From NCBI GenBank assembly GCA_038231455.1, contig JBBRLI010000002.1, positions 1 to 64,000 on the forward strand: a stretch of DNA of 64,000 nt, read 5' to 3'. Shown here one piece after another: positions 2,736 to 11,567 of the stretch. This stretch comes from Vulcanimicrobiales bacterium (GTDB taxonomy: Bacteria; Vulcanimicrobiota; Vulcanimicrobiia; Vulcanimicrobiales; Vulcanimicrobiaceae). The first letter of the stretch is position 1; each line of letters begins with the position of its first letter. Made by a program: the position numbers and the translations under genes. Under the pieces are notes generated by a model. That model saw only the letters and a program-made list of their open reading frames with translations. It did not search any database and had not been told where the DNA came from.

Positions 2736-4013
2736 GTGGCCGCGATCCCCGCCGAATCCGTTCGCCCGAAGCCCGCAAAGAAGTGGGCGTTGTGGCGTTA
2801 TCTGGCGGTTGCCGGTCCGGGCCTAATCGTCGCCTTCGCCGATACCGAAGCTGGCAGCGTGACAACGGCTGCCACTTCCGGCGCGCAATTCGGCATGAAG
2901 CTCGTGCTCTTACAGCTCTTACTGATCGTTCCGCTCTTCGTCGTACAAGAAATGACCGTCCGTCTGGGGACCGTCACGGGCAAAGGTCACGCGCAGCTCA
3001 TTCGAGACAACTACGGCCTGGGCTGGACGTGGGTATCGCTTGGCACCATGCTGGTGACGAATTTAGCGGCGCTCGTGACCGAGTTCATCGGGATCGCCGG
3101 CGTAGCGCTCATTTTTGGGCTGCCGGCGGCGCCCCTCGTTATCGGGGCAGCTGCGATTTTGATCGCGGTGAGTTTCTCCGGGAAATACAAGCGCGCTGAG
3201 TACATCGCAATGGCGCTCTGTTTTCTCGAGTTGCTCTTCATTCCGGCGGCGTTTGCCGCGCATCCGAGCGCGCACGATGTGGTGATGAACGGCCTCTTTG
3301 GTTCGCAGCCGCTCGGGAATACGACCTACTTGCTGTTGATCGCCGGCAACATTGGTGCCGTCATTATGCCTTGGATGATTTTCTATCAACAGTCGGCCGT
3401 GGTCGATAAGGGTCTCAAAGTAAAAGATCTGAATTTCGCGCGGGTCGATACGGCAATCGGCGCGGTCCTCACGCAAGTCATCATGATCGCAATCGTGGTG
3501 ACTACGGCGGCCACGCTGTTCGTCCATCATCAGAATGTCTCGGATGCCGCGCACGCGGCGCTCGCTCTCGTCCCGTTGACGGGCTCGAAACTCGCAGGAA
3601 TCGCCTTTGGTGCGGGTCTACTCGGTGCGTCGCTCATCGGTGCATTCGTGGTGTCGCTCGCGACGGCGTGGGCTTTTGGTGAAGCCTTTCGCTGGCCGTG
3701 CTCGCTCAATTTCCAGTGTACGCAAGCGAAGCGTTTTTACGGTTTGTATGCCGCAATCGTTGTTATTGCTGCCGGTGTCGTGCTCATTCCGAATCTGCCC
3801 CTGATCAAAATCACGCTTTATGTCGAAGCGTTCAACGCGTTCGTCTTACCGATTGTGCTTGGATTCTTGCTCATCATGGCCAACGACAAGAAAATCTTGG
3901 GCGACCGTGTGAATAGCGCGCTTGGCAATATCGTCACGATCGGTCTCTCCGTCGTCGTCGTCTCACTTGGCGTGTGGATGGCCTATATGACCTTCACCGG
4001 CCAGAACGGTTGA
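2736..4013 (+). CDS. Nramp-family divalent metal transporter (MntH-related)
   Basis: GPGLI..ADTEAG, QEMTVRLG.VTGKG, IGAVIMPWMIFYQQS; many TM helices; SD GAGGAG. Confidence 0.9.
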   Translation: MAAIPAESVRPKPAKKWALWRYLAVAGPGLIVAFADTEAGSVTTAATSGAQFGMKLVLLQLLLIVPLFVVQEMTVRLGTVTGKGHAQLIRDNYGLGWTWVSLGTMLVTNLAALVTEFIGIAGVALIFGLPAAPLVIGAAAILIAVSFSGKYKRAEYIAMALCFLELLFIPAAFAAHPSAHDVVMNGLFGSQPLGNTTYLLLIAGNIGAVIMPWMIFYQQSAVVDKGLKVKDLNFARVDTAIGAVLTQVIMIAIVVTTAATLFVHHQNVSDAAHAALALVPLTGSKLAGIAFGAGLLGASLIGAFVVSLATAWAFGEAFRWPCSLNFQCTQAKRFYGLYAAIVVIAAGVVLIPNLPLIKITLYVEAFNAFVLPIVLGFLLIMANDKKILGDRVNSALGNIVTIGLSVVVVSLGVWMAYMTFTGQNG

Positions 4014-4402
4014 TTCGCGCCGGCGCGCTTGCGTGCGCCATGATCGCCGTCGCGCTTCCCACTCAGGCTGCGACCGCGCCGTTCGAACGAACGTTTTCGG
4101 GGAGCGGCATGCGCGCGCGCGTTATCATCGTGCATCCGCTCATCGGGATATCGGTCTTACGGGTCGTCTTGCGCGACGATCGGGGTCGGCCGGTTCGCCG
4201 CGCGCGACTGAACGTCCATGTCGATATGGCGTCGATGGCGATGAACCCCCCGGGATCGGCACCCCTCGAGGAAATTCGCTCGGGCATCTACGAGCGCGTC
4301 GTAAAGCTCACGATGCCCGGCCACTGGAAAGCCGATCTAAGCATCGAGAGGCCCAGCGGCGTGACGTCGCTGAGCCTCCCGTTTTTCGTCGATCTGCCGT
4401 AG
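4010..4402 (+). CDS. YtkA/FixH-like exported protein (possible metal chaperone)
   Basis: Signal peptide; DMASMAM...E...GIYE...LTMPGHW pattern; TTGA overlap with the Nramp stop. Confidence 0.7.
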   Translation: MIRAGALACAMIAVALPTQAATAPFERTFSGSGMRARVIIVHPLIGISVLRVVLRDDRGRPVRRARLNVHVDMASMAMNPPGSAPLEEIRSGIYERVVKLTMPGHWKADLSIERPSGVTSLSLPFFVDLP

Positions 4403-6712
4403 CTATTTTCCGCTAAAGCGCACGCCGACTTCGACGCTGCGTGGCCGCGCATAATGGTTCCCTTGGGCATTGAGATACGTTACCCGGTAGCGGTCGTTCA
4501 ACAGATTGTGAACGGTCAGGGTCAACGCGCCGCCTTTTCCCGTCCCGAAGCCCTTCTGGAGATCGAACGTGGTATGCGGGGGTGATTTACAGTTATCGTT
4601 TGCCGGGTCGCAGCCGGCAGAAGTTAATCCCGAGCCGTATTCCCCGTTAACCGCAAGCCATCCGCCGCGTGTGTCGTTGAGGAGAATGCCGCCGTTGAAG
4701 TCGACACGCTGATCGTGATCGGCTGGGCTCCAATCGGTCGCCGGACCGCTAAAGCACGGTGCGAGGAGCTGCGTCTCACATTCTTTGACGACCGAGTATG
4801 TGTGCGTCGCCGATACATAGAAGCGGCCGCTGCGTGCGAGCGAGTGTTGGAAGAACGCGGTCTGCGTTCCGATACGACCAAGCTTATAGTTGATATCTTG
4901 GTGCAAATTTGTATTTAACACCGCCGTGTCGTCGATCACGTCAGTAGCGTTCTTCTGCATGATACGGATTCCGAGATCGCCGCCCGCGAGCGGAAGATGA
5001 CCGCCGATTTCATAAACGGAATCGCGCTGTGGGAGAAGGTCGAAATTTCCGCTCGCCGGATTGAGCGCCTGGCCCGTTGCCGGTGAGACGTTTTCAAACG
5101 AATACGGGGTGAAGAAGCGGCCATAATACGCATATAAACTCGCGCGCGGCCCAAGGAACCGCGTGAGCTTGACGCGTGGGCTGAGCATGAACGAGCCCGA
5201 GCGGAACTGCGTCGATGTGAGTTGGAACGCATCGGCACGGACGCCGTAATCCAGTTCGTAACCAGTGCCCATGCGCCAAGAATCTTGCAGGTACGCTTCT
5301 TCGGTGTGGCCGGTGTTCGGAGCGCGATCGCCAATCGTTGCGGGCGCAACGCCGAGCGGATTGTTCGATTGGAGTGTAACTGCGTAGTCTTTGCTTATCG
5401 TCGTCAGGTCGTAAAGCGTTCCGGCCTTGATCGCGTGACGGTCGCTGCGCAGTTCGTAGTCCACGTTGAAGCGATAATCGAGCGACGTACGATCGGCGCG
5501 AACGGCAAACGAACAGGTCGTTATGTCGGCCGAACAATTGGGCGTTCCGCCCGCGGCGATTCCGGCAGCGATATCGTTTGCGAAGTCCGGGGAATCTACG
5601 ATATGCGAGCGCTTGACGCTCGGTCCGAACGAGAGTGCACCGCGTTCTCCGATCGCATGGCGAAATTGTAGCGATCCGAAGAGGTCATCCTGACGTTCGT
5701 TGTCGTCTTGCTTCGAGGGTGCGCCGCTTTCGACGTCAGGTGGGATCTGATACGTTTGTAGCGAGTGCGTGAGCGTGAAATTCACAAAGTCCGTCGAACC
5801 GTGCGGAAGCGTCAGGCGAAGGAACTGGTTTGCGTTGCTGCCGCCGTTGTGCGGGGAGTTTTCGTTTGGCGGATCGAGTGCCCGGCCGTCGCGTTCGTTG
5901 CGTACCGCAAGGGAGATCGAGCCTGCACCGACGGGCGCGTGATAGCCAATCGTTCCGTCATACTTTGCATAGCTTCCGCCGAGCGCGTCAACCGTAAATC
6001 CCGGCGCGCCGCTTCCGCTACGCGTCGAGAGGTTGAGGACGGAGCCGAATTTCTCGCCGTATTGGGCGGGATACGCGCCTTCGAGCACTTCGGCGTATGC
6101 AAGGTTACTCGGATCGACTTCGCTGCCGATCACGCGATTGAGGGCCTGAGGTAAGGAGACGCCATCGACAACGTAGTTGATGTCGCCGTGATCGCCGTTG
6201 ATGTGCACGGTTCCGTTAGCACCGCGCGCGGCGCCGGGCAACTGGAGGAGGATCTCCGAGAAGTTGCCTGCTGCGGGCGAGCGCGAAAACGATTGGGCAT
6301 TGATCGTGACGTCGGTGCCGCCGCCGCGCACGATCGCACGCGATTGGGCGTTTGTGCGTCCGATCGTTTTGATTTCTTTCTGGACGTTAATCTCGAGATT
6401 TGCGCCAGCAGTATTGAGATCGACGCGGATGTCGTTATTTCCGAGGCTCGATGCGACAGCGATATCGTACGTTCCCACGGAGAGCGCGCTAAACGAGAAT
6501 TTGCCGCGCGCGTCCGTTTGCGTGCGCAAGGTGAGGTTGTTGCCGATCAAGCTGACGGATGCGGCGGGAACGGGTTGTCCATTGGAAACGACGGTGCCGG
6601 TGAGGAACGTCGTCGCGGCAAGCGCGGGCGTCGCCACCATGGCAATCAGGATGGCGAGCGTCGCCAGAAGTGCAGCACAGCGCCGCAACGGCTCGTGAAC
6701 GAGTGTAAACAC
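4403..6712 (-). CDS. TonB-dependent receptor with N-terminal carboxypeptidase-regulatory-like domain
   Basis: Signal peptide; GTV..GQPVPAASV...TDARGKFSF domain; plug (YVVDG, GAYPAQYG); barrel motifs (AYLQDSW, YGVRAD, SPRV, HNLLNDRY); SD AGGAG then GTG 6712 (TTG 6715 alternative). Confidence 0.92.
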   Translation of the reverse strand: MFTLVHEPLRRCAALLATLAILIAMVATPALAATTFLTGTVVSNGQPVPAASVSLIGNNLTLRTQTDARGKFSFSALSVGTYDIAVASSLGNNDIRVDLNTAGANLEINVQKEIKTIGRTNAQSRAIVRGGGTDVTINAQSFSRSPAAGNFSEILLQLPGAARGANGTVHINGDHGDINYVVDGVSLPQALNRVIGSEVDPSNLAYAEVLEGAYPAQYGEKFGSVLNLSTRSGSGAPGFTVDALGGSYAKYDGTIGYHAPVGAGSISLAVRNERDGRALDPPNENSPHNGGSNANQFLRLTLPHGSTDFVNFTLTHSLQTYQIPPDVESGAPSKQDDNERQDDLFGSLQFRHAIGERGALSFGPSVKRSHIVDSPDFANDIAAGIAAGGTPNCSADITTCSFAVRADRTSLDYRFNVDYELRSDRHAIKAGTLYDLTTISKDYAVTLQSNNPLGVAPATIGDRAPNTGHTEEAYLQDSWRMGTGYELDYGVRADAFQLTSTQFRSGSFMLSPRVKLTRFLGPRASLYAYYGRFFTPYSFENVSPATGQALNPASGNFDLLPQRDSVYEIGGHLPLAGGDLGIRIMQKNATDVIDDTAVLNTNLHQDINYKLGRIGTQTAFFQHSLARSGRFYVSATHTYSVVKECETQLLAPCFSGPATDWSPADHDQRVDFNGGILLNDTRGGWLAVNGEYGSGLTSAGCDPANDNCKSPPHTTFDLQKGFGTGKGGALTLTVHNLLNDRYRVTYLNAQGNHYARPRSVEVGVRFSGK

Positions 6713-6788
6713 CAAAAAACTCCTAGAAAATCGGGAGACCCGGCGCGCAGCGCGCGGGCGAAATTAGGCCGAAATCGGAGTGGTGTTC
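6707..6788 (-). promoter_or_regulatory. predicted SD/start-sequestering mRNA stem
   Basis: mRNA GAACACCA-CUCC (6788-6777) is complementary to GGAG...UGGUGUUU (6723-6707), which holds the SD and GUG; nested UCGG/CCGA pair and GC hairpin inside. Confidence 0.65.
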
Positions 6789-7363
6789 GGTGGCGGACGG
6801 TTGGGGACGAAAAGCGCGTAAATGCGGGCCCGCGGGAGATGCGGGATTGCAAAATAGCGACGTGCAACGCGGACCGCGCAGCGGGTCGAACGGTCGCGAT
6901 CGATATAGTGTGTGAGTGCCGAGGCGATTGCGACGAGCGGAGCTGCACCCGCGTCGAGAAGCAGCGCACCGAGGATTGCGGCCAAGACCGCAGACACGAG
7001 CGACCCAAGCGAGCCAAGCGGTGTGAGCGCCGTGCCCTCAAGCGTCAGCGTCAGAGCGGCAAAGCCGATTTGTAGTCCCACAGCCAGGGCCGCGAATTCG
7101 GGTCCGCGGCCGCGTCTTGGTAAGTCGGCGATGAGGAGCGTGAGGGTGCGCCTGCGGTCGTGCGTCGAGCCGCCTCGCGCGGCGAGCGCGATCAGAAGAA
7201 CGATCGATAAGGCGAGCAGACCCAGCAAATAGCTGTGCCGCGCGGCAAAATCGGCGGTCACGCCGACGCCGACGATTTCCCAAAACACGTGGACGGCCGC
7301 TCCAAGCGGCATCATGAGTGCAGCGAGGAGGCCGACGGCGCGCAAGCGACGAGTCGTCATCAT
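6764..7363 (-). CDS. multi-pass membrane leader protein with C-terminal RPPP arrest-like motif
   Basis: About 4 hydrophobic helices, AAVH..E and RHSY His motifs, basic tail ending VPNRPPPNTTPISA; about 50 nt upstream of the receptor. Confidence 0.8.
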   Translation of the reverse strand: MMTTRRLRAVGLLAALMMPLGAAVHVFWEIVGVGVTADFAARHSYLLGLLALSIVLLIALAARGGSTHDRRRTLTLLIADLPRRGRGPEFAALAVGLQIGFAALTLTLEGTALTPLGSLGSLVSAVLAAILGALLLDAGAAPLVAIASALTHYIDRDRSTRCAVRVARRYFAIPHLPRARIYALFVPNRPPPNTTPISA

Positions 7364-7407
7364 CGAGCTCTCAAACACGAAGCGGACGCGATTCTTTGCA
7401 CCAACGC

Positions 7408-7443
7408 AAAAAAAAAGCCCACCGCCGGACACGCGGTGGGCTT
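7408..7443 (-). terminator. intrinsic terminator
   Basis: AAGCCCACCGC/GCGGTGGGCTT stem followed by a 9-T run on the minus strand, after the lipoprotein gene. Confidence 0.9.
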
Positions 7444-7457
7444 GGAACGTGCCGCGG

Positions 7458-8438
7458 CTAGTGCGGTGTTGACGAGGGGTTTGCGCTCGGAGCCGGAGAG
7501 GGGCTCGCGCTCGGCGCGGCCGATTCGGAGGGTTCGACGCTGGGCGCTGCAGATGCGGTGGCACTTGGGGTTGCGCTCGGCGCGCTGCTGGGGCAAGGCG
7601 ATGCTGCGGTCCCGGTCGTGTTCGCCGTAATCGGCCCTTTGAGGTCGAGCGTCGGCTGACCGTTGGAACCAAAGATGCGGATGCGCAGACGGAACGTTCC
7701 ACTTGGAATCGGGATCGTCAGGGCTGAGGTGAGCGCCCCTTCGAATTTGAAACGGACGCCGGCGTCATCGTCGCCGTCTTGCGAGCGCAATTCAATTTTA
7801 ACGCGCGAGAGACTCGCGCCGTTCGGAGCGATCGTGAGCGATGTGCACGAAGCCGTCACCGTAACCGGCAGGTTCGACGGGAATGCATTTGTGGACGTGG
7901 TAACGGCGGTCGGATTGCCGTCTTTGTCTTCATCGATCGTCGAAGTTGCGGAGCCGGGCGAAGGTGACGCCGATGGTGATGCTCCGTTTCCGGCGTGTTC
8001 GGGTTGCGCGGAGACCCTCAAGGTTCCATCGGGTTTTACCATGACTGAGACGGCGGTTCCGTCGTCGGCGTCGGCGAGCACGACCGTTGCTTTTTGCGAA
8101 CCCGCGGTCACCACGACGGTCGCGCCGCGCGGCACATCGGCCGTGAATGTGATGGTCGCATGTCCGTTCGCATCGAGCGTCCCACTTGCAACGATTTTAT
8201 CGCGATACGTTACCGTGATTGGCGTACCGCTGAGTGCTTGCGTCTGCCGGCCGGCGCTAAGTGTGCTCGTTCCGGAAAAACCGATATCCATAACGCGCGT
8301 CGTTGTACGAAGCGCCGCCGCCGTTGCGAGGGAGGTCGGTACGCTAGCGTTCGGCACAGCGCTCGTTCCGCCGCCGCTGCAGCCGACAAACGCAATCGCG
8401 ACCGATGCGAGAAGACCGAAGCCGATCCGATAATTCAT
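7458..8438 (-). CDS. putative lipoprotein with Ser/Ala/Pro-rich tail
   Basis: Lipobox FVGC-SGGG; beta-rich body; SAxPS low-complexity C-terminus; SD GGGAG. Confidence 0.8.
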   Translation of the reverse strand: MNYRIGFGLLASVAIAFVGCSGGGTSAVPNASVPTSLATAAALRTTTRVMDIGFSGTSTLSAGRQTQALSGTPITVTYRDKIVASGTLDANGHATITFTADVPRGATVVVTAGSQKATVVLADADDGTAVSVMVKPDGTLRVSAQPEHAGNGASPSASPSPGSATSTIDEDKDGNPTAVTTSTNAFPSNLPVTVTASCTSLTIAPNGASLSRVKIELRSQDGDDDAGVRFKFEGALTSALTIPIPSGTFRLRIRIFGSNGQPTLDLKGPITANTTGTAASPCPSSAPSATPSATASAAPSVEPSESAAPSASPSPAPSANPSSTPH

Positions 8439-8479
8439 AGTTTCTCCCTAAGCTGGACTCCGTAGCGATGTTGCGGCTA

Positions 8480-8511
8480 ACACTACGAATCGATCGTGAA
8501 GAAACGATGAA
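8480..8511 (-). promoter_or_regulatory. possible OmpR/PhoB-type direct repeat plus -10 element
   Basis: Minus strand TTCAT-N6-TTCAC (11-bp period), 10 nt, then TAGTGT. Confidence 0.4.
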
Positions 8512-8615
8512 AAATTCCGCGTGGGCCGATCACTATGCGCTCGCTCACAACGATCGAGTCACGAAGCGTGCGTTCGGTTGACGCGGGTTTGCACGAAAAA
8601 CGTATTCGTCGTCGT

Positions 8616-10916
8616 TTACAAGGGAGCGATAATTCGAAACGTTAGCGATGTACCGGCGGCCCACTGCGAGGTATTGAATCCGTTATTGAACTTGAGTAGA
8701 TATTTGCGATTGGTAAGGTTGGTTATGTCGAGGCCCAGGCCGAGGCGATGCGCCGCGGGCTCGCGCCCAAGTGCGATATCAAACGTTACATGAGGGGGCA
8801 AGCGACCGCCGGTGCCATCGAGGAACTGGACGGGGTAGCCGGTGCCAAATTGCGGTTCGAGCGTCGCGTAGTAGCCCGACGATCCAAATCGCCGTGTGTA
8901 CGCGCCGTTGATCGAGAGCGTTTGATCGTGGTCTTCCGGCTGGAAGCCGCTCGCGTTGATCGCGGCCAGTTGGCTCGGTGGGATGATGAACGTGCCGCCC
9001 GAGATGCCGCTCGCCTCCGAGCTTGATAGGGTCGTCGAAAGGAAGAACGTGTCTCCGTTTACGCGACGACCGTCGAGCCGCGCTTCGACCCCTTCGTCTC
9101 GACCGAGCGTCGAATTATACACCGCGTATATCGGGGTGTTCGCGAGTTGCGTGGTATCGAGTACGTTTGCCACGTTCCGGCGGAAGTAATTTGCGTATCC
9201 GCGCAGGTTTGCACCGAACGTGTGCGCGATGCCCATCTCGTAGTACGAATCGCGTTGCGGTTGAAGATCGTAGACCGGTAAGACACCGGGGCTGTTCAAG
9301 ACGAGTGCGCTTGCATCGCGACGGGTATCTTCAAGCGCCGGCGCCGCGTAATTGCGGCCGTAGTAGAAGTGCACGACGTTGCGGCGGTCCGGCGCGAGGT
9401 TGATTTCGAACCGCGGGCTGATTTGATTGCCGCTGGTAAAGCCGGTCGAGCGGTCATAACGCACGCCCGCATTGAGAGTAAGGGCCGGCGAGGGCGACCA
9501 CTTATCTTGAATGTATGCACCGATCTGCGTCCCGTGTCGGCTTGCGTTGTCGAGAAGATCGGGGGGTGTTCCGTTCGTGATGCGGGAGTCAGAACGGAAG
9601 TTCTCACCCGAATAATCGAAGCCGATTTTGATAGCATGATGATCGCTTGCGCGGAAATTCGCCAGCCGCAGACCGGCGTAACTTGCGGATCGATCCTCGC
9701 GAAGTCCGGTAAGGTTTCCGGTCGGGGCGCCGGTCGCATCGACCGTTGTCGCAAGGACGTCTTGCGCCAGATCACCGGCGTAGACGATCCTGGAATTCCG
9801 AACCCACGGAATGATTTGAAAAAATCCTTGGCCGTCGGTCGCCGTGTGCGTCAATGCAAAGGAGGCCGTCCGATCGTACTCGCGCTGAACGTCATCTGTG
9901 CCCCGCGCACTGATGACCGGGTCGTTCGGACTAAACGTCGTGTTGGTCGGGATCTGAAATGCGGAAAAATTGTTCGAGTAGTTAAACGCAAGCGACGTGT
10001 TCTCGCCGATCGGTTTGAGGATACGCAGAAATTGATCGGCGAGATTCGAGCGATCGTGGTTGGGGACGAACGTCGGCGAATCGAGTCCGCGGCTTGAACG
10101 TGCGTCGCTTGCTCCGACGAACACCCGCGTTGCGCCGAGTGCGAACGATTGTGCAAGACGCATCTCGGCCTCGCCGTAGCTGCCAGCACCCAGCGTAAAT
10201 GTTCCGGACGCGCGCGCGCCAAGGTCGCTCGGACGTTTGGAGACGATATTGACGACTGCGCCCTGACGCGAGCCGCCGAACTCGGCGGGAAATGCTCCCG
10301 TGAAGACCTCGATCGAATCGACGTTGCGCGGATCGACGATCTCGGCAAAGTTGGAACTCGTCGACTGCGGCAGCGGGGCGCCGTCTAGTTCGTAGAGCAG
10401 GCCGTGGAAGCCATGCGCGACGGGTTCGTTATACGAGAATTTTACGACGCCCGGCGCGGTTTCAACGAGCGATGCGAGCGATTCGGGATTTGGCAACACG
10501 GCGATAAGCCCGGCTCCGATCGTATTTTGCGAGACCGGCGTTCCGCTCGCGCCGCGCGAGGTTGCGCTCACGCGGCCGATGACGCGTGCGTCGCTCGTGA
10601 CCGAGAGGGCCACATTGGCGACATCCCCGCTTCCAACGGAGATTTCCAGGGGCGGTGCCGTGCGTCCGTCCGGGATTTTTGCCGCAATGTGATAATCTCC
10701 AAACGGCACGCGGGCGAACGCAAAGCGGCCGTCGCCTTGCGAATCGGTCCCGAGGATGAGCGATCCCCCCGCAAGGGTGACATGTGCGGCGACAGGCCGA
10801 CCATCGAGCGTGACGGTGCCACGAACGAAGCCTACGGTATCAGCGAAGGCCGGCGACATGGTTCCAAGGGCAATGAGTACCGCGCAGGCTAGCTGCGCGA
10901 CAAAACGACGAGACAA
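8616..10916 (-). CDS. TonB-dependent receptor with N-terminal carboxypeptidase-regulatory-like domain
   Basis: Signal peptide; plug (YELDG, TGAFPAEFG, GAVVNIVSK); AYIQDKW, GVRYD, SPRF, NLTNRKY; SD GGAGGA then TTG 10916 (TTG 10928 alternative). Confidence 0.92.
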   Translation of the reverse strand: MSRRFVAQLACAVLIALGTMSPAFADTVGFVRGTVTLDGRPVAAHVTLAGGSLILGTDSQGDGRFAFARVPFGDYHIAAKIPDGRTAPPLEISVGSGDVANVALSVTSDARVIGRVSATSRGASGTPVSQNTIGAGLIAVLPNPESLASLVETAPGVVKFSYNEPVAHGFHGLLYELDGAPLPQSTSSNFAEIVDPRNVDSIEVFTGAFPAEFGGSRQGAVVNIVSKRPSDLGARASGTFTLGAGSYGEAEMRLAQSFALGATRVFVGASDARSSRGLDSPTFVPNHDRSNLADQFLRILKPIGENTSLAFNYSNNFSAFQIPTNTTFSPNDPVISARGTDDVQREYDRTASFALTHTATDGQGFFQIIPWVRNSRIVYAGDLAQDVLATTVDATGAPTGNLTGLREDRSASYAGLRLANFRASDHHAIKIGFDYSGENFRSDSRITNGTPPDLLDNASRHGTQIGAYIQDKWSPSPALTLNAGVRYDRSTGFTSGNQISPRFEINLAPDRRNVVHFYYGRNYAAPALEDTRRDASALVLNSPGVLPVYDLQPQRDSYYEMGIAHTFGANLRGYANYFRRNVANVLDTTQLANTPIYAVYNSTLGRDEGVEARLDGRRVNGDTFFLSTTLSSSEASGISGGTFIIPPSQLAAINASGFQPEDHDQTLSINGAYTRRFGSSGYYATLEPQFGTGYPVQFLDGTGGRLPPHVTFDIALGREPAAHRLGLGLDITNLTNRKYLLKFNNGFNTSQWAAGTSLTFRIIAPL

Positions 10917-10920
10917 ACGA

Positions 10921-10989
10921 TCCTCCAAAATAAAAGCGCAATCGAATCGGCAGTCAAAACTGCCGAGGAACGGTCAGCGCAGCGGAGGA
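10921..10989 (-). promoter_or_regulatory. predicted SD-sequestering structure
   Basis: UCCUCC within the Ala-Pro-Pro codons (10989-10984) is complementary to SD GGAGGA (10926-10921); perfect 8-bp hairpin TCGGCAGT/ACTGCCGA (10947-10966) lies between them. Confidence 0.6.
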
Positions 10990-11567
10990 GCGCGCCCAAG
11001 GCGCGATCCACGGCCGAGACGGCCCGTGTGGAGCGGACGGCGTGCCGCGATGGGAGCAATCTCAACAACTGGTCCGGAGGCCGACAGCAGAACGGCCAGG
11101 AGTCGGACAAAGGCCACGCCGAGGTCGGACATGGCTAGCGTGAGAGCACGGATGGCCAGCGCAAGCACGAGCGAGACGACAAGCATCAGCGCGACGGGAA
11201 GGACGAAATCGGCGAAAAGACCTTGGACCGGGCAACAGCTCTCGAGTCGCTCGACCCCAAAGTACACAGCGACCCCGCTCGTGGCGATCGCAGCGGTGGT
11301 CGCGCCGATCGAGCCGCGTCCAGGAAGTACGTCCAGCAAGCGCCGCGCCACGATCGACCCGGACGCACATGTCCGCGCCTCGCGGGCGATCAGCCACACG
11401 GCCCCGACCGCAAGCCCGATGAGCGCGACCACGGCAAAGCTGACCAGGGCCTCATTGCCCTCGCCGCCCATCGCGTGATCGTCTCCAAACCGGACCTGGT
11501 GTGCCAAAAGCGCGCTCAGGACGGCGAGGGGAACGACCGCAACCCCTCTGCGGATGCCCATGGTCAT
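10974..11567 (-). CDS. multi-pass membrane leader protein with C-terminal RAPP arrest-like motif
   Basis: About 4 TM helices, LLAH...DDH motif, ESCC, basic tail ending GRAPPLR*; directly upstream of the receptor. Confidence 0.8.
   Translation of the reverse strand: MTMGIRRGVAVVPLAVLSALLAHQVRFGDDHAMGGEGNEALVSFAVVALIGLAVGAVWLIAREARTCASGSIVARRLLDVLPGRGSIGATTAAIATSGVAVYFGVERLESCCPVQGLFADFVLPVALMLVVSLVLALAIRALTLAMSDLGVAFVRLLAVLLSASGPVVEIAPIAARRPLHTGRLGRGSRLGRAPPLR

Follow-up and report, generated by a model that had tools for sequence, protein, structure and literature searches.

The first 64,000 nucleotides (nt) of contig JBBRLI010000002.1 of Vulcanimicrobiales bacterium (GenBank assembly GCA_038231455.1; this whole stretch is called the window below) encode, on the minus strand, a 199-residue membrane protein (leader 1) directly upstream of a TonB-dependent receptor (receptor 1). 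This leader-receptor pair probably works as a translational switch; the general type of the switch is known, and the phylum has been little studied. Indeed, (i) the leader ends in an R-P-P-P sequence, and the pattern R-x-P-P (RxPP) is the only invariant feature of its family, (ii) the codons that follow this sequence pair with the Shine-Dalgarno (SD) sequence and the start codon of the receptor gene, and (iii) the pairing is kept in related loci through sequences that differ from locus to locus. A conserved module composed of RxPP and an anti-SD strand is well supported, while its working as a regulated arrest is unproven. With moderate confidence, we consider that leader 1 and receptor 1 constitute an arrest or pause module of the RAPP-like type, which gates the translation of the receptor.

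The locus had been described in a sequence-only reading, the coordinates of which were re-checked base by base on the minus strand. The unit consists of the following features:

7406 to 7443, minus strand: intrinsic-terminator-like hairpin and T run (stem 7443-7415, 11 base pairs (bp) including 8 GC pairs, then TTTTTTTGCG)
6764 to 7363, minus strand: leader 1 gene, 199 codons plus UAA (6766-6764), start ATG at 7363
6788 to 6820, minus strand: conserved C-terminal module Y-A-L-F-V-P-N-R-P-P-P (residues 182-192), putative arrest or pause sequence
6775 to 6788, minus strand: anti-SD strand GAACACCACUCCGA, last base of the Pro192 codon and the next 4-5 codons (minimum free energy (MFE) and centroid structures)
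6731 to 6772, minus strand: intergenic insert with UCGG/CCGA as closing pairs and a GC hairpin inside (6759-6738; RNAfold structure)
6707 to 6723, minus strand: translation-initiation region of receptor 1, with SD GGAG at 6723-6720 and start UUG at 6715 or GUG at 6712
4403 to 6715, minus strand: receptor 1 gene, 770-residue TonB-dependent receptor (Pfam domains)

The open reading frame (ORF) of leader 1 ends with ...LFVPNRPPPNTTPISA before its stop codon, and the C-terminal residues of the product are ...RIYALFVPNRPPPNTTPISA. The R-P-P-P codons (CGT CCG CCA CCG, 6799-6788) lie seven residues before the stop and are followed by G AAC ACC ACU CC (6788-6777), exactly as first read. The possible start codons of receptor 1 are UUG (6715-6713) and GUG (6712-6710), UGGUGUUU occupies 6714-6707, and the spacer between the two genes is 48 nt long. 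Receptor 1 matches PF00593 (beta-barrel, 8.6e-13), PF13620 (N-terminal CarboxypepD_reg, 6.6e-11) and PF07715 (Plug, 1.4e-6). The strong upstream terminator that had been placed at 7408-7443 was found again; it closes a unit made of a second leader, a second receptor and a 326-residue lipoprotein-like gene, and is the 5' boundary of the leader 1-receptor 1 unit, the start of leader 1 lying about 45 nt further on. No sigma-70-like promoter was found in 6500-8700, including the interval between the terminator and leader 1, and an Rfam scan of 6500-7600 at E <= 1 returned two sub-threshold chance matches, neither of them over the intergenic element.

The leader family and its C-terminal RxPP motif

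One correction concerns the product, which is a 199-residue membrane protein and not a short leader peptide. Leader 1 has four helices, is assigned to the inner membrane and belongs to an unnamed family, the members of which are nearly all from Vulcanimicrobiota (Eremiobacterota). Hydropathy delimits hydrophobic segments at residues 9-31, 44-62, 90-108 and 118-136; basic regions are located at the N-terminus, in the 63-89 loop and in the C-tail, and the positive-inside rule applied to this profile suggests an N-in/C-in topology. An AlphaFold2 model built from a 27-sequence alignment is all-helical, with a mean predicted local distance difference test score (pLDDT) of 83.4. No Pfam or NCBIfam family was found for leader 1 (Pfam E <= 0.01), and none of the 27 family members matches DUF2946, the family of the Bordetella pertussis protein CruR, at E <= 0.1. 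A known fold was also sought by comparing the model with the PDB in Foldseek, which returned generic helical bundles only (best E = 0.38).

The 30 nearest ESM Atlas clusters are all annotated as 'hypothetical protein', Vulcanimicrobiota being the commonest source. A word-indexed search gave 8 close relatives only, and a profile search of 1.84 billion representatives gave 203 clusters at E <= 1e-3. The family is matched in 40 of 201 genomes of the same order (this tally, like that of the leader 2 family below, takes in unpublished genomes). Among 16 loci assigned taxonomically, 15 belong to Vulcanimicrobiota, Eremiobacteraeota or WPS-2 genera and one to a Limnocylindria bin.

In an alignment of 27 diverse members, sharing 20-76% identity with leader 1, the only invariant columns are R189, P191 and P192. 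Nearly invariant positions are H25, H43, R70, L81, E109 and G110, of which H25, H43 and E109 lie where helices 1, 2 and 3, respectively, reach the periplasmic face. About half of the family carries, where helix 3 ends, an EGCPLC sequence (CxxC), which a membrane helix separates from the RxPP about 74 residues further on; the member of the window has EGTALT instead. Closer to leader 1, Y182, L184, F185, P187, N188, R189 and P190-192 are invariant in the 8 close homologues, in which the following 7 residues vary, and F185-P192 is invariant in a 16-sequence alignment of the subfamily.

Among the 150 best profile matches, 129 show RxPP in their last 45 residues (RPPP 109, RAPP 15, RGPP 3, RRPP 1, RSPP 1), followed in 124 of these 129 by a tail of 2-13 residues; the query alignment included leader 2 and may have drawn in some of the RAPP members. 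The 21 matches devoid of RxPP comprise 14 fragments, in which the profile match ends before position 175, two proteins with LPPP and five longer proteins. Over 30 loci the Arg codon is CGT (11), CGG (10), CGC (7) or CGA (2), and all four Pro codons are used, a synonymous variation which indicates selection on the peptide. The 7-10 residues that precede the Arg are kept within subfamilies (LFVPN-, TLGN-, FSFRY-, IAS-), and the approximately 30 residues before them (about 150-175) are not conserved. By analogy, this layout, with a variable linker, a conserved segment of tunnel length, RxPP and a short free tail, matches that of the RAPP-like arrest peptides as they are described in the literature, and the interchange of RPPP, RAPP and RGPP is what would be expected of this published class (PMC10987492, PMC12992588). 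In Escherichia coli, RPPP has been reported as the strongest-stalling XPPP motif (PMC4176338; bioRxiv 10.1101/2024.08.03.606492).

A few sequences (L021 / L040, P0039, P0042, P0051 and P0123) extend 36-38 residues beyond RPPP, apparently into the intergenic region; these extensions could result from the loss of the stop codon or from a sequencing frameshift.

Predicted pairing of the receptor start site with the 3' end of the leader gene

The segment 6830-6690 was folded with RNAfold, and the MFE and centroid structures agree on a long-range helix. The pairing which had been proposed between the codons after RPPP and the region of the SD and GUG is present, in a slightly shifted register: GAACACC (6788-6782) pairs with GGUGUUU (6713-6707), and the helix continues with ACUCC (6781-6777) against GGAGU (6723-6719) and with 6776-6775 against 6728-6727. 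The nested UCGG/CCGA pairs (6772-6769 with 6734-6731), as well as the GC hairpin (6759-6738) that closes the intergenic loop, are found as described, and this intergenic insert (6731 to 6772) draws both long-range strands together. The SD is not freely accessible in this structure, with a probability of 0.80 of being paired; its dominant partner, the centre of which lies at +21 nt from the Arg codon, is in the 'tail' region (probability 0.79). The folding energy of the whole segment is ordinary (z = -0.99, with 34 of 200 shuffles as stable), so the case rests on specificity and conservation and not on stability. When the anti-SD segment alone was shuffled, none of 30 sequences reached the native cost of opening the start site (12.3 kcal/mol, against a mean of 8.0).

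The same analysis was performed on 29 related loci, each folded singly over a segment that opens 45 nt ahead of the Arg codon and closes 18 nt beyond the receptor start. Two of them, L015 and L020, belong to genomes that are unpublished (G146 and G189), and when both are dropped the main counts become 22/27, 19/27, 18/27 and 17/24. The SD is paired with a probability of at least 0.8 in 24/29 loci. Its dominant partner is formed by the codons after RPPP in 15 loci, by the RPPP codons themselves in 7, by the codons just before in 3 and by intergenic sequence in 1-2; the 7 loci that use the RPPP codons form the FRYRPPP group, in which CGUCCUCC pairs with GAGGACG. Shuffling the 3' segment of the ORF leaves at most one of 30 sequences at the native opening cost in 20/29 loci (mean of 12.8 kcal/mol for native and 8.9 for shuffled sequences).

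Complementarity is retained in homologues of 30-40% protein identity, through sequences that are specific to each locus. Examples of the paired flanks are GUCUAGGAG, GCUAGGAGU, UUAGGAGCG, CUGGAUUGGAACAUC and AGGGAUAGAAAC, each with its own upstream partner strand, and between the window and a 77%-identical relative an A-U pair is replaced by G-C (ACUCC/GGAGU versus GCUCC/GGAGC). Native anti-SD/SD duplexes have a mean energy of -20.2 kcal/mol, versus -14.4 kcal/mol when the strands are swapped between loci, and the native mean was reached in 0 of 10000 permutations. Pairs involve the core GGA of the SD in 23-24 of 28 loci, and the flanking positions show 4-6 pair types; the SD pairs are canonical by construction, as they were taken from per-sequence MFE predictions. 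GC-rich hairpins comparable to that of the window follow the stop codon in most related loci.

The synteny is fixed on the receptor side only. In 29/29 related loci the next ORF encodes a receptor with CarboxypepD_reg and/or Plug domains, at an intergenic distance of 12-121 nt. The flanks of 16 loci are variable (PGI, YmdB, HbpS-like, MFS and others), so that leader and receptor appear as a self-contained module; these loci share no flanking gene set that would name a substrate. The genome of the window has 13 Plug-domain matches, and only two of its receptors, both in the window, have a plausible RxPP gene upstream. A search for further copies considered 59 ORFs that have R[APG]PP at the C-terminus, and only the two units of the window look real. 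What computation shows here is the pairing, with its conservation and a complementarity specific to each locus, together with an invariant RxPP and a fixed synteny with the receptor.

Proposed mechanism and alternative explanations

We infer that RPPP pauses or arrests the ribosomes of this organism. In the mechanism proposed, leader 1 and receptor 1 would act as a two-gene module in which the 3' end of the leader gates translation of the receptor. In the free mRNA, the SD and start codon of the receptor would be locked by the codons right after RPPP, or within RPPP in some relatives. As a RAPP-like motif of the polyproline type, RPPP would slow peptide-bond formation, and a ribosome would pause while its P site holds Pro-Pro-tRNA and its A site Pro-tRNA; the footprint of the paused ribosome would then lie over the anti-SD strand, making the start site much easier to open and 30S initiation possible. 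Once the pause is resolved and translation terminates seven codons on, the helix would re-form.

The effect of a ribosome on the start site was computed by blocking a stalled footprint from -12 to +14 nt around the Pro191 codon, after the toeprint reported for an LPPP arrest peptide (PMC10987492), and by taking as opening cost the free energy needed to open positions -15 to +5 at the receptor start. The anti-SD strand (6775 to 6788) falls inside the footprint of a ribosome that would hold Pro191 in its P site during the pause, as the sequence-only reading had proposed for a ribosome stalled on RPPP, and with this footprint blocked the opening cost falls from 12.2 to 5.7 kcal/mol in the window, and from a mean of 12.3 to 8.1 kcal/mol over the 29 loci. 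The cost drops by at least 3 kcal/mol in 19/29 loci for the stalled position, versus 3/29 for a control ribosome placed 10 codons upstream. The claim that the start site is thereby set free stands only in part, however, since the SD is not fully released: with the block, its probability of being unpaired goes only from 0.20 to 0.23 in the window (mean from 0.14 to 0.23 over the loci), and it exceeds 0.5 in only 1 of the 25 loci in which the SD of the free RNA is paired (probability of being unpaired below 0.25). The SD stays mostly paired at equilibrium because weaker alternative partners take over.

This limited release is the first of several observations that weigh against a regulated arrest. 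Between 5 and 9 of the 29 loci fail one or other test; the SD is weakly paired in L028 and L029, and the pairing is independent of the 3' end of the ORF in L014, L022 and L026. Leader 1 is a confidently folded and conserved four-helix bundle, unlike the poorly structured CruR, and it probably has a function of its own, which RxPP could serve; the CxxC present in about half of its relatives is missing from it. The genome of the window encodes elongation factor P (EF-P), which normally relieves PPP pauses. In a crude ORF-based proteome of this genome, RPPP is not depleted (9 observed versus 9.8 expected), and xPPP sequences are overall about 2-fold enriched (more than 3-fold for SPPP, TPPP and EPPP). 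RAPP (3 versus 24) and RGPP (2 versus 15.6) are about 8-fold depleted in the same proteome, which agrees with the published avoidance of RAPP-like sequences. Finally, when the ribosome sits at the stop codon, the opening cost is reduced by 3 kcal/mol or more in 18/29 loci (mean cost of 8.8 kcal/mol); this position is nearly as effective as the stalled one, so that folding cannot separate stalling from plain translational coupling.

Under such a coupling, the helix would be opened by any ribosome on the last leader codons and both proteins would be produced jointly, while RxPP would serve the mature protein, for instance as a docking site in the cytoplasm, instead of being a programmed pause. 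This reading accounts for the RNA data nearly as well, and it fits with a leader protein that is well folded and conserved in a cell possessing EF-P. In loci with 3-codon tails, the UAG stop codon is itself part of the anti-SD strand (CUCCUAG with CUAGGAG). Coupling leaves unexplained, however, why RxPP should be the sole invariant feature of the family, lying 2-13 residues from the end and interchanging between RPPP, RAPP and RGPP, which are published arrest motifs, while the residues after the motif are not conserved. The position of the anti-SD strand also speaks to this question: its centre lies inside the stalled footprint (-9 to +21 nt relative to the Arg codon) in 19/26 loci and inside the terminating footprint in 15/26, and in loci with 10-11-codon tails it is still about 17 nt from the Arg codon and 25-28 nt before the stop, outside the terminating footprint. 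The anti-SD strand therefore follows the RPPP codons rather than the stop codon, which is a modest discriminator, and we regard plain coupling as unlikely.

The read-out could also be transcriptional. In Bordetella pertussis, CruR (DUF2946) has a C-terminal RAPP and controls the downstream TonB-dependent receptor BfrG (Roy et al. 2022, PMC9426467), and this protein, the only RAPP protein upstream of a TonB-dependent receptor to have been studied experimentally, acts via Rho according to that report. By attenuation of this type, a ribosome paused at RPPP would shield the mRNA from Rho or alter the pausing of RNA polymerase at the GC hairpin, a GC-rich hairpin being present after the stop codon in most loci, and the SD helix would be secondary. 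However, the gap is 48 nt here versus 162 bp in cruR-bfrG, the authors of which stress long intergenic regions; no U tract adjoins the hairpin, and the 48-nt gap yielded no intrinsic terminator call; the family has no DUF2946 match; and such a model does not need locus-specific complementarity between anti-SD and SD. Attenuation can coexist with the SD gate, and as the principal explanation it seems improbable. More improbable still is a sensor of EF-P activity or of proline supply, in which RPPP, reported from E. coli as the strongest of the EF-P-dependent XPPP motifs (PMC4176338, bioRxiv 10.1101/2024.08.03.606492), would act in this EF-P-encoding genome as an ordinary pause reporting EF-P or Pro-tRNA and the membrane domain would have no role, as a link between EF-P and an outer-membrane receptor is physiologically not obvious, the motifs of the RAPP and RGPP members (18/129) have been reported to resist EF-P (PMC12992588), and the conserved membrane domain is left unexplained.

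Within the favoured arrest module, the role of the membrane domain is more speculative. The length of the pause could be set by a signal read by the already inserted four-helix domain, with feedback as in CruR; candidate signals are a metal or ligand at H25, H43 and E109 (with the CxxC in about half of the family), or the force of membrane insertion. As 56 residues separate the end of helix 4 (residue 136) from Pro192, all four helices would be outside the exit tunnel during the pause, and the whole bundle could be inserted while the ribosome waits. A release of the arrest that depends on a ligand or metal, as proposed for copper and CruR (PMC9426467), is a plausible but wholly inferred extension. 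In its most complete form, the four-helix protein would be a co-translational sensor: an imported metal or metallophore would bind the periplasmic site, the arrest would be released and the helix would close again. We hold this form to be a tentative and somewhat doubtful one.

The second unit, known systems and implications

The window contains a second unit of the same organization, upstream of the terminator described above:

10974 to 11567, minus strand: leader 2, a 197-residue membrane protein ending in GRAPPLR before the stop codon (RAPP codons 10994-10983)
10928/10916 to 8616, minus strand: receptor 2, a second 770-residue TonB-dependent receptor

In the MFE structure, the Ala-Pro-Pro codons of leader 2 (CUCCUCC) pair with the SD of receptor 2 (GGAGGA, 10926-10921). 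The leader 2 family is the more widespread one, with members in 115 of the 201 genomes of the order that were searched; its C-termini are of the RRFARPPP or GRAPP(P) type. Direct homology between leaders 1 and 2 was sought and not retained (BLASTP not significant; hhalign of A3 versus leader 2, probability 0.3); a leader 2 query does match two genes of the leader 1 family (E 6e-5 and 2e-4), so the two are, only tentatively, distant relatives. The start of receptor 2 is probably TTG 10916-10914 and not the TTG 10928 of the longest ORF: the latter (10928-10926) shares one base (G 10926) with the SD, and in the same-genus relative L050 an ATG stands where the window has TTG 10916. In L050, the orthologue of leader 2 ends with ...GLLPPRGVK after 167 matched residues and lacks RAPP, the SD and ATG of the receptor being intact; it may be a frameshifted or decayed copy.

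Other observations concern the surroundings of the units. An Nramp (MntH-like) metal transporter gene (2736-4013, plus strand) overlaps the start of a gene for a YtkA-like protein of 142 residues (3974-4402, plus strand); both are convergent with receptor 1, and a YtkA-like gene is likewise convergent with the receptor in the 77%-identical relative L032. On the minus strand, 506-2641 is an envelope-stress-type cluster near the receptor units, which comprises an ECF (extracytoplasmic function) sigma factor (2039-2641), a probable anti-sigma factor (a 159-residue ORF without family) and a MucB/RseB-like protein (506-1597). In eight loci of the EGCPLC subfamily (L005, L006, L008, L009, L010, L014, L016 and L017), a 7-1-7 palindrome of approximately TGCGAAT-C-ATTCGCA lies 4-30 nt upstream of the leader start. 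Its layout recalls a Fur-family box, and it is not clearly present in the window nor near the leaders of the genome of the window. If it is of the Fur type, it would place a transcriptional metal control on top of the translational gate, possibly with very short 5' leaders.

In SecM and MifM, the SD of the downstream gene is held in a stem whose other strand sits under the stalled ribosome. The likeness to secM-secA and mifM-yidC2 that had been drawn for leader 1 holds for this RNA logic, which was computed here, and fails for the regulated gene: SecM and MifM regulate the Sec or YidC machinery that handles the leader, whereas leader 1 would regulate an outer-membrane receptor. As the receptor is not localisation machinery, a pulling-force feedback on the regulated product is not implied, and since the regulated gene does not encode the machinery that inserts the leader, CruR-BfrG is the closer functional precedent. 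The observation made in the sequence-only reading is thus confirmed, and its interpretation as a whole is partly supported.

CruR, as it is described (PMC9426467), and leader 1 both have an export or membrane signal and an RxPP a few residues before the stop and are encoded directly upstream of a TonB-dependent receptor; the motif of CruR is required for expression of BfrG, and a CxxC is common to CruR and about half of the leader 1 family. The differences are numerous. Members of the leader 1 family have 190-200 residues and four membrane helices, whereas CruR has 145 residues and is poorly structured; the motif is RPPP in leader 1 and RAPP in CruR; and the spacing rule given for DUF2946, with an invariant CxxC about 45 residues upstream of RAPP, contrasts with the distance of about 74 residues in the leader 1 family and with the lack of a CxxC in the member of the window. 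Leader 1 does not match DUF2946 and its gap to the receptor gene is shorter, and the predicted control acts at the SD, that is on translation, whereas that of CruR has been ascribed to Rho-dependent termination. By analogy, the module resembles a hybrid between the biological logic of CruR-BfrG and the RNA layout of SecM and MifM.

The RAPP-like arrest peptides (ApdA, ApdP, ApcA and the RQH family; Sakiyama 2021, PMC10987492, PMC12992588) share several reported features with leader 1: a C-terminal R-x-P-P shared by divergent homologues, an N-terminal localisation signal, a length below 300 residues and a position upstream of the regulated gene on the same strand. The dominant motif of the leader 1 family is RPPP, which is also a classical EF-P-dependent polyproline sequence, whereas the 2025 survey of upstream ORFs (PMC12992588) sought RAPP and RGPP; the main text of this survey, which mentions a TonB-related class, does not contain 'RPPP', and the products of that class are mostly described with signal peptides, whereas the leader 1 family is polytopic. 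The uA_LPPP arrest peptides of Planctomycetota, for which a toeprint was reported with the second Pro in the P site (Fujiwara 2024, PMC10987492), share with leader 1 an X-P-P-P within the last 15 residues, and two members of the leader 1 family carry LPPP. They differ in being signal-peptide leaders located upstream of secA in another phylum, and their arrest was reported to be efficient with B. subtilis ribosomes and not with E. coli ribosomes in vivo. No description of the leader 1 family was met in a limited search of the literature on ribosome stalling at RPPP or on TonB-dependent receptors of Eremiobacterota, the supplements of the surveys lying outside this scope.

RAPP-like arrest peptides have long been tied to Sec and YidC, and in the publications cited here one case concerning a TonB-dependent receptor, the Rho-based CruR, has been dissected. 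The leader 1 family is a separate, lineage-restricted and polytopic one, of about 195 residues and without a Pfam family, for which the comparative RNA evidence points to direct unmasking of the SD. On this evidence, outer-membrane importers seem to have come under stalling-based control more than once, through different read-outs. The module is compact and testable, as it is limited to the last 50 or so codons of the leader, the 48-nt spacer and the start site, and lends itself to asking whether RPPP can serve as a regulated arrest despite EF-P. It also provides an annotation rule for hundreds of 'hypothetical' genes in Vulcanimicrobiota (Eremiobacterota). If the sensor model is true, leader 1 would be a nascent-chain sensor by which the imported product exerts direct feedback on a TonB-dependent importer via translation and not via Rho, and this device would be phylum-wide in Vulcanimicrobiota, through two related families present in 40 and 115 of the 201 genomes.

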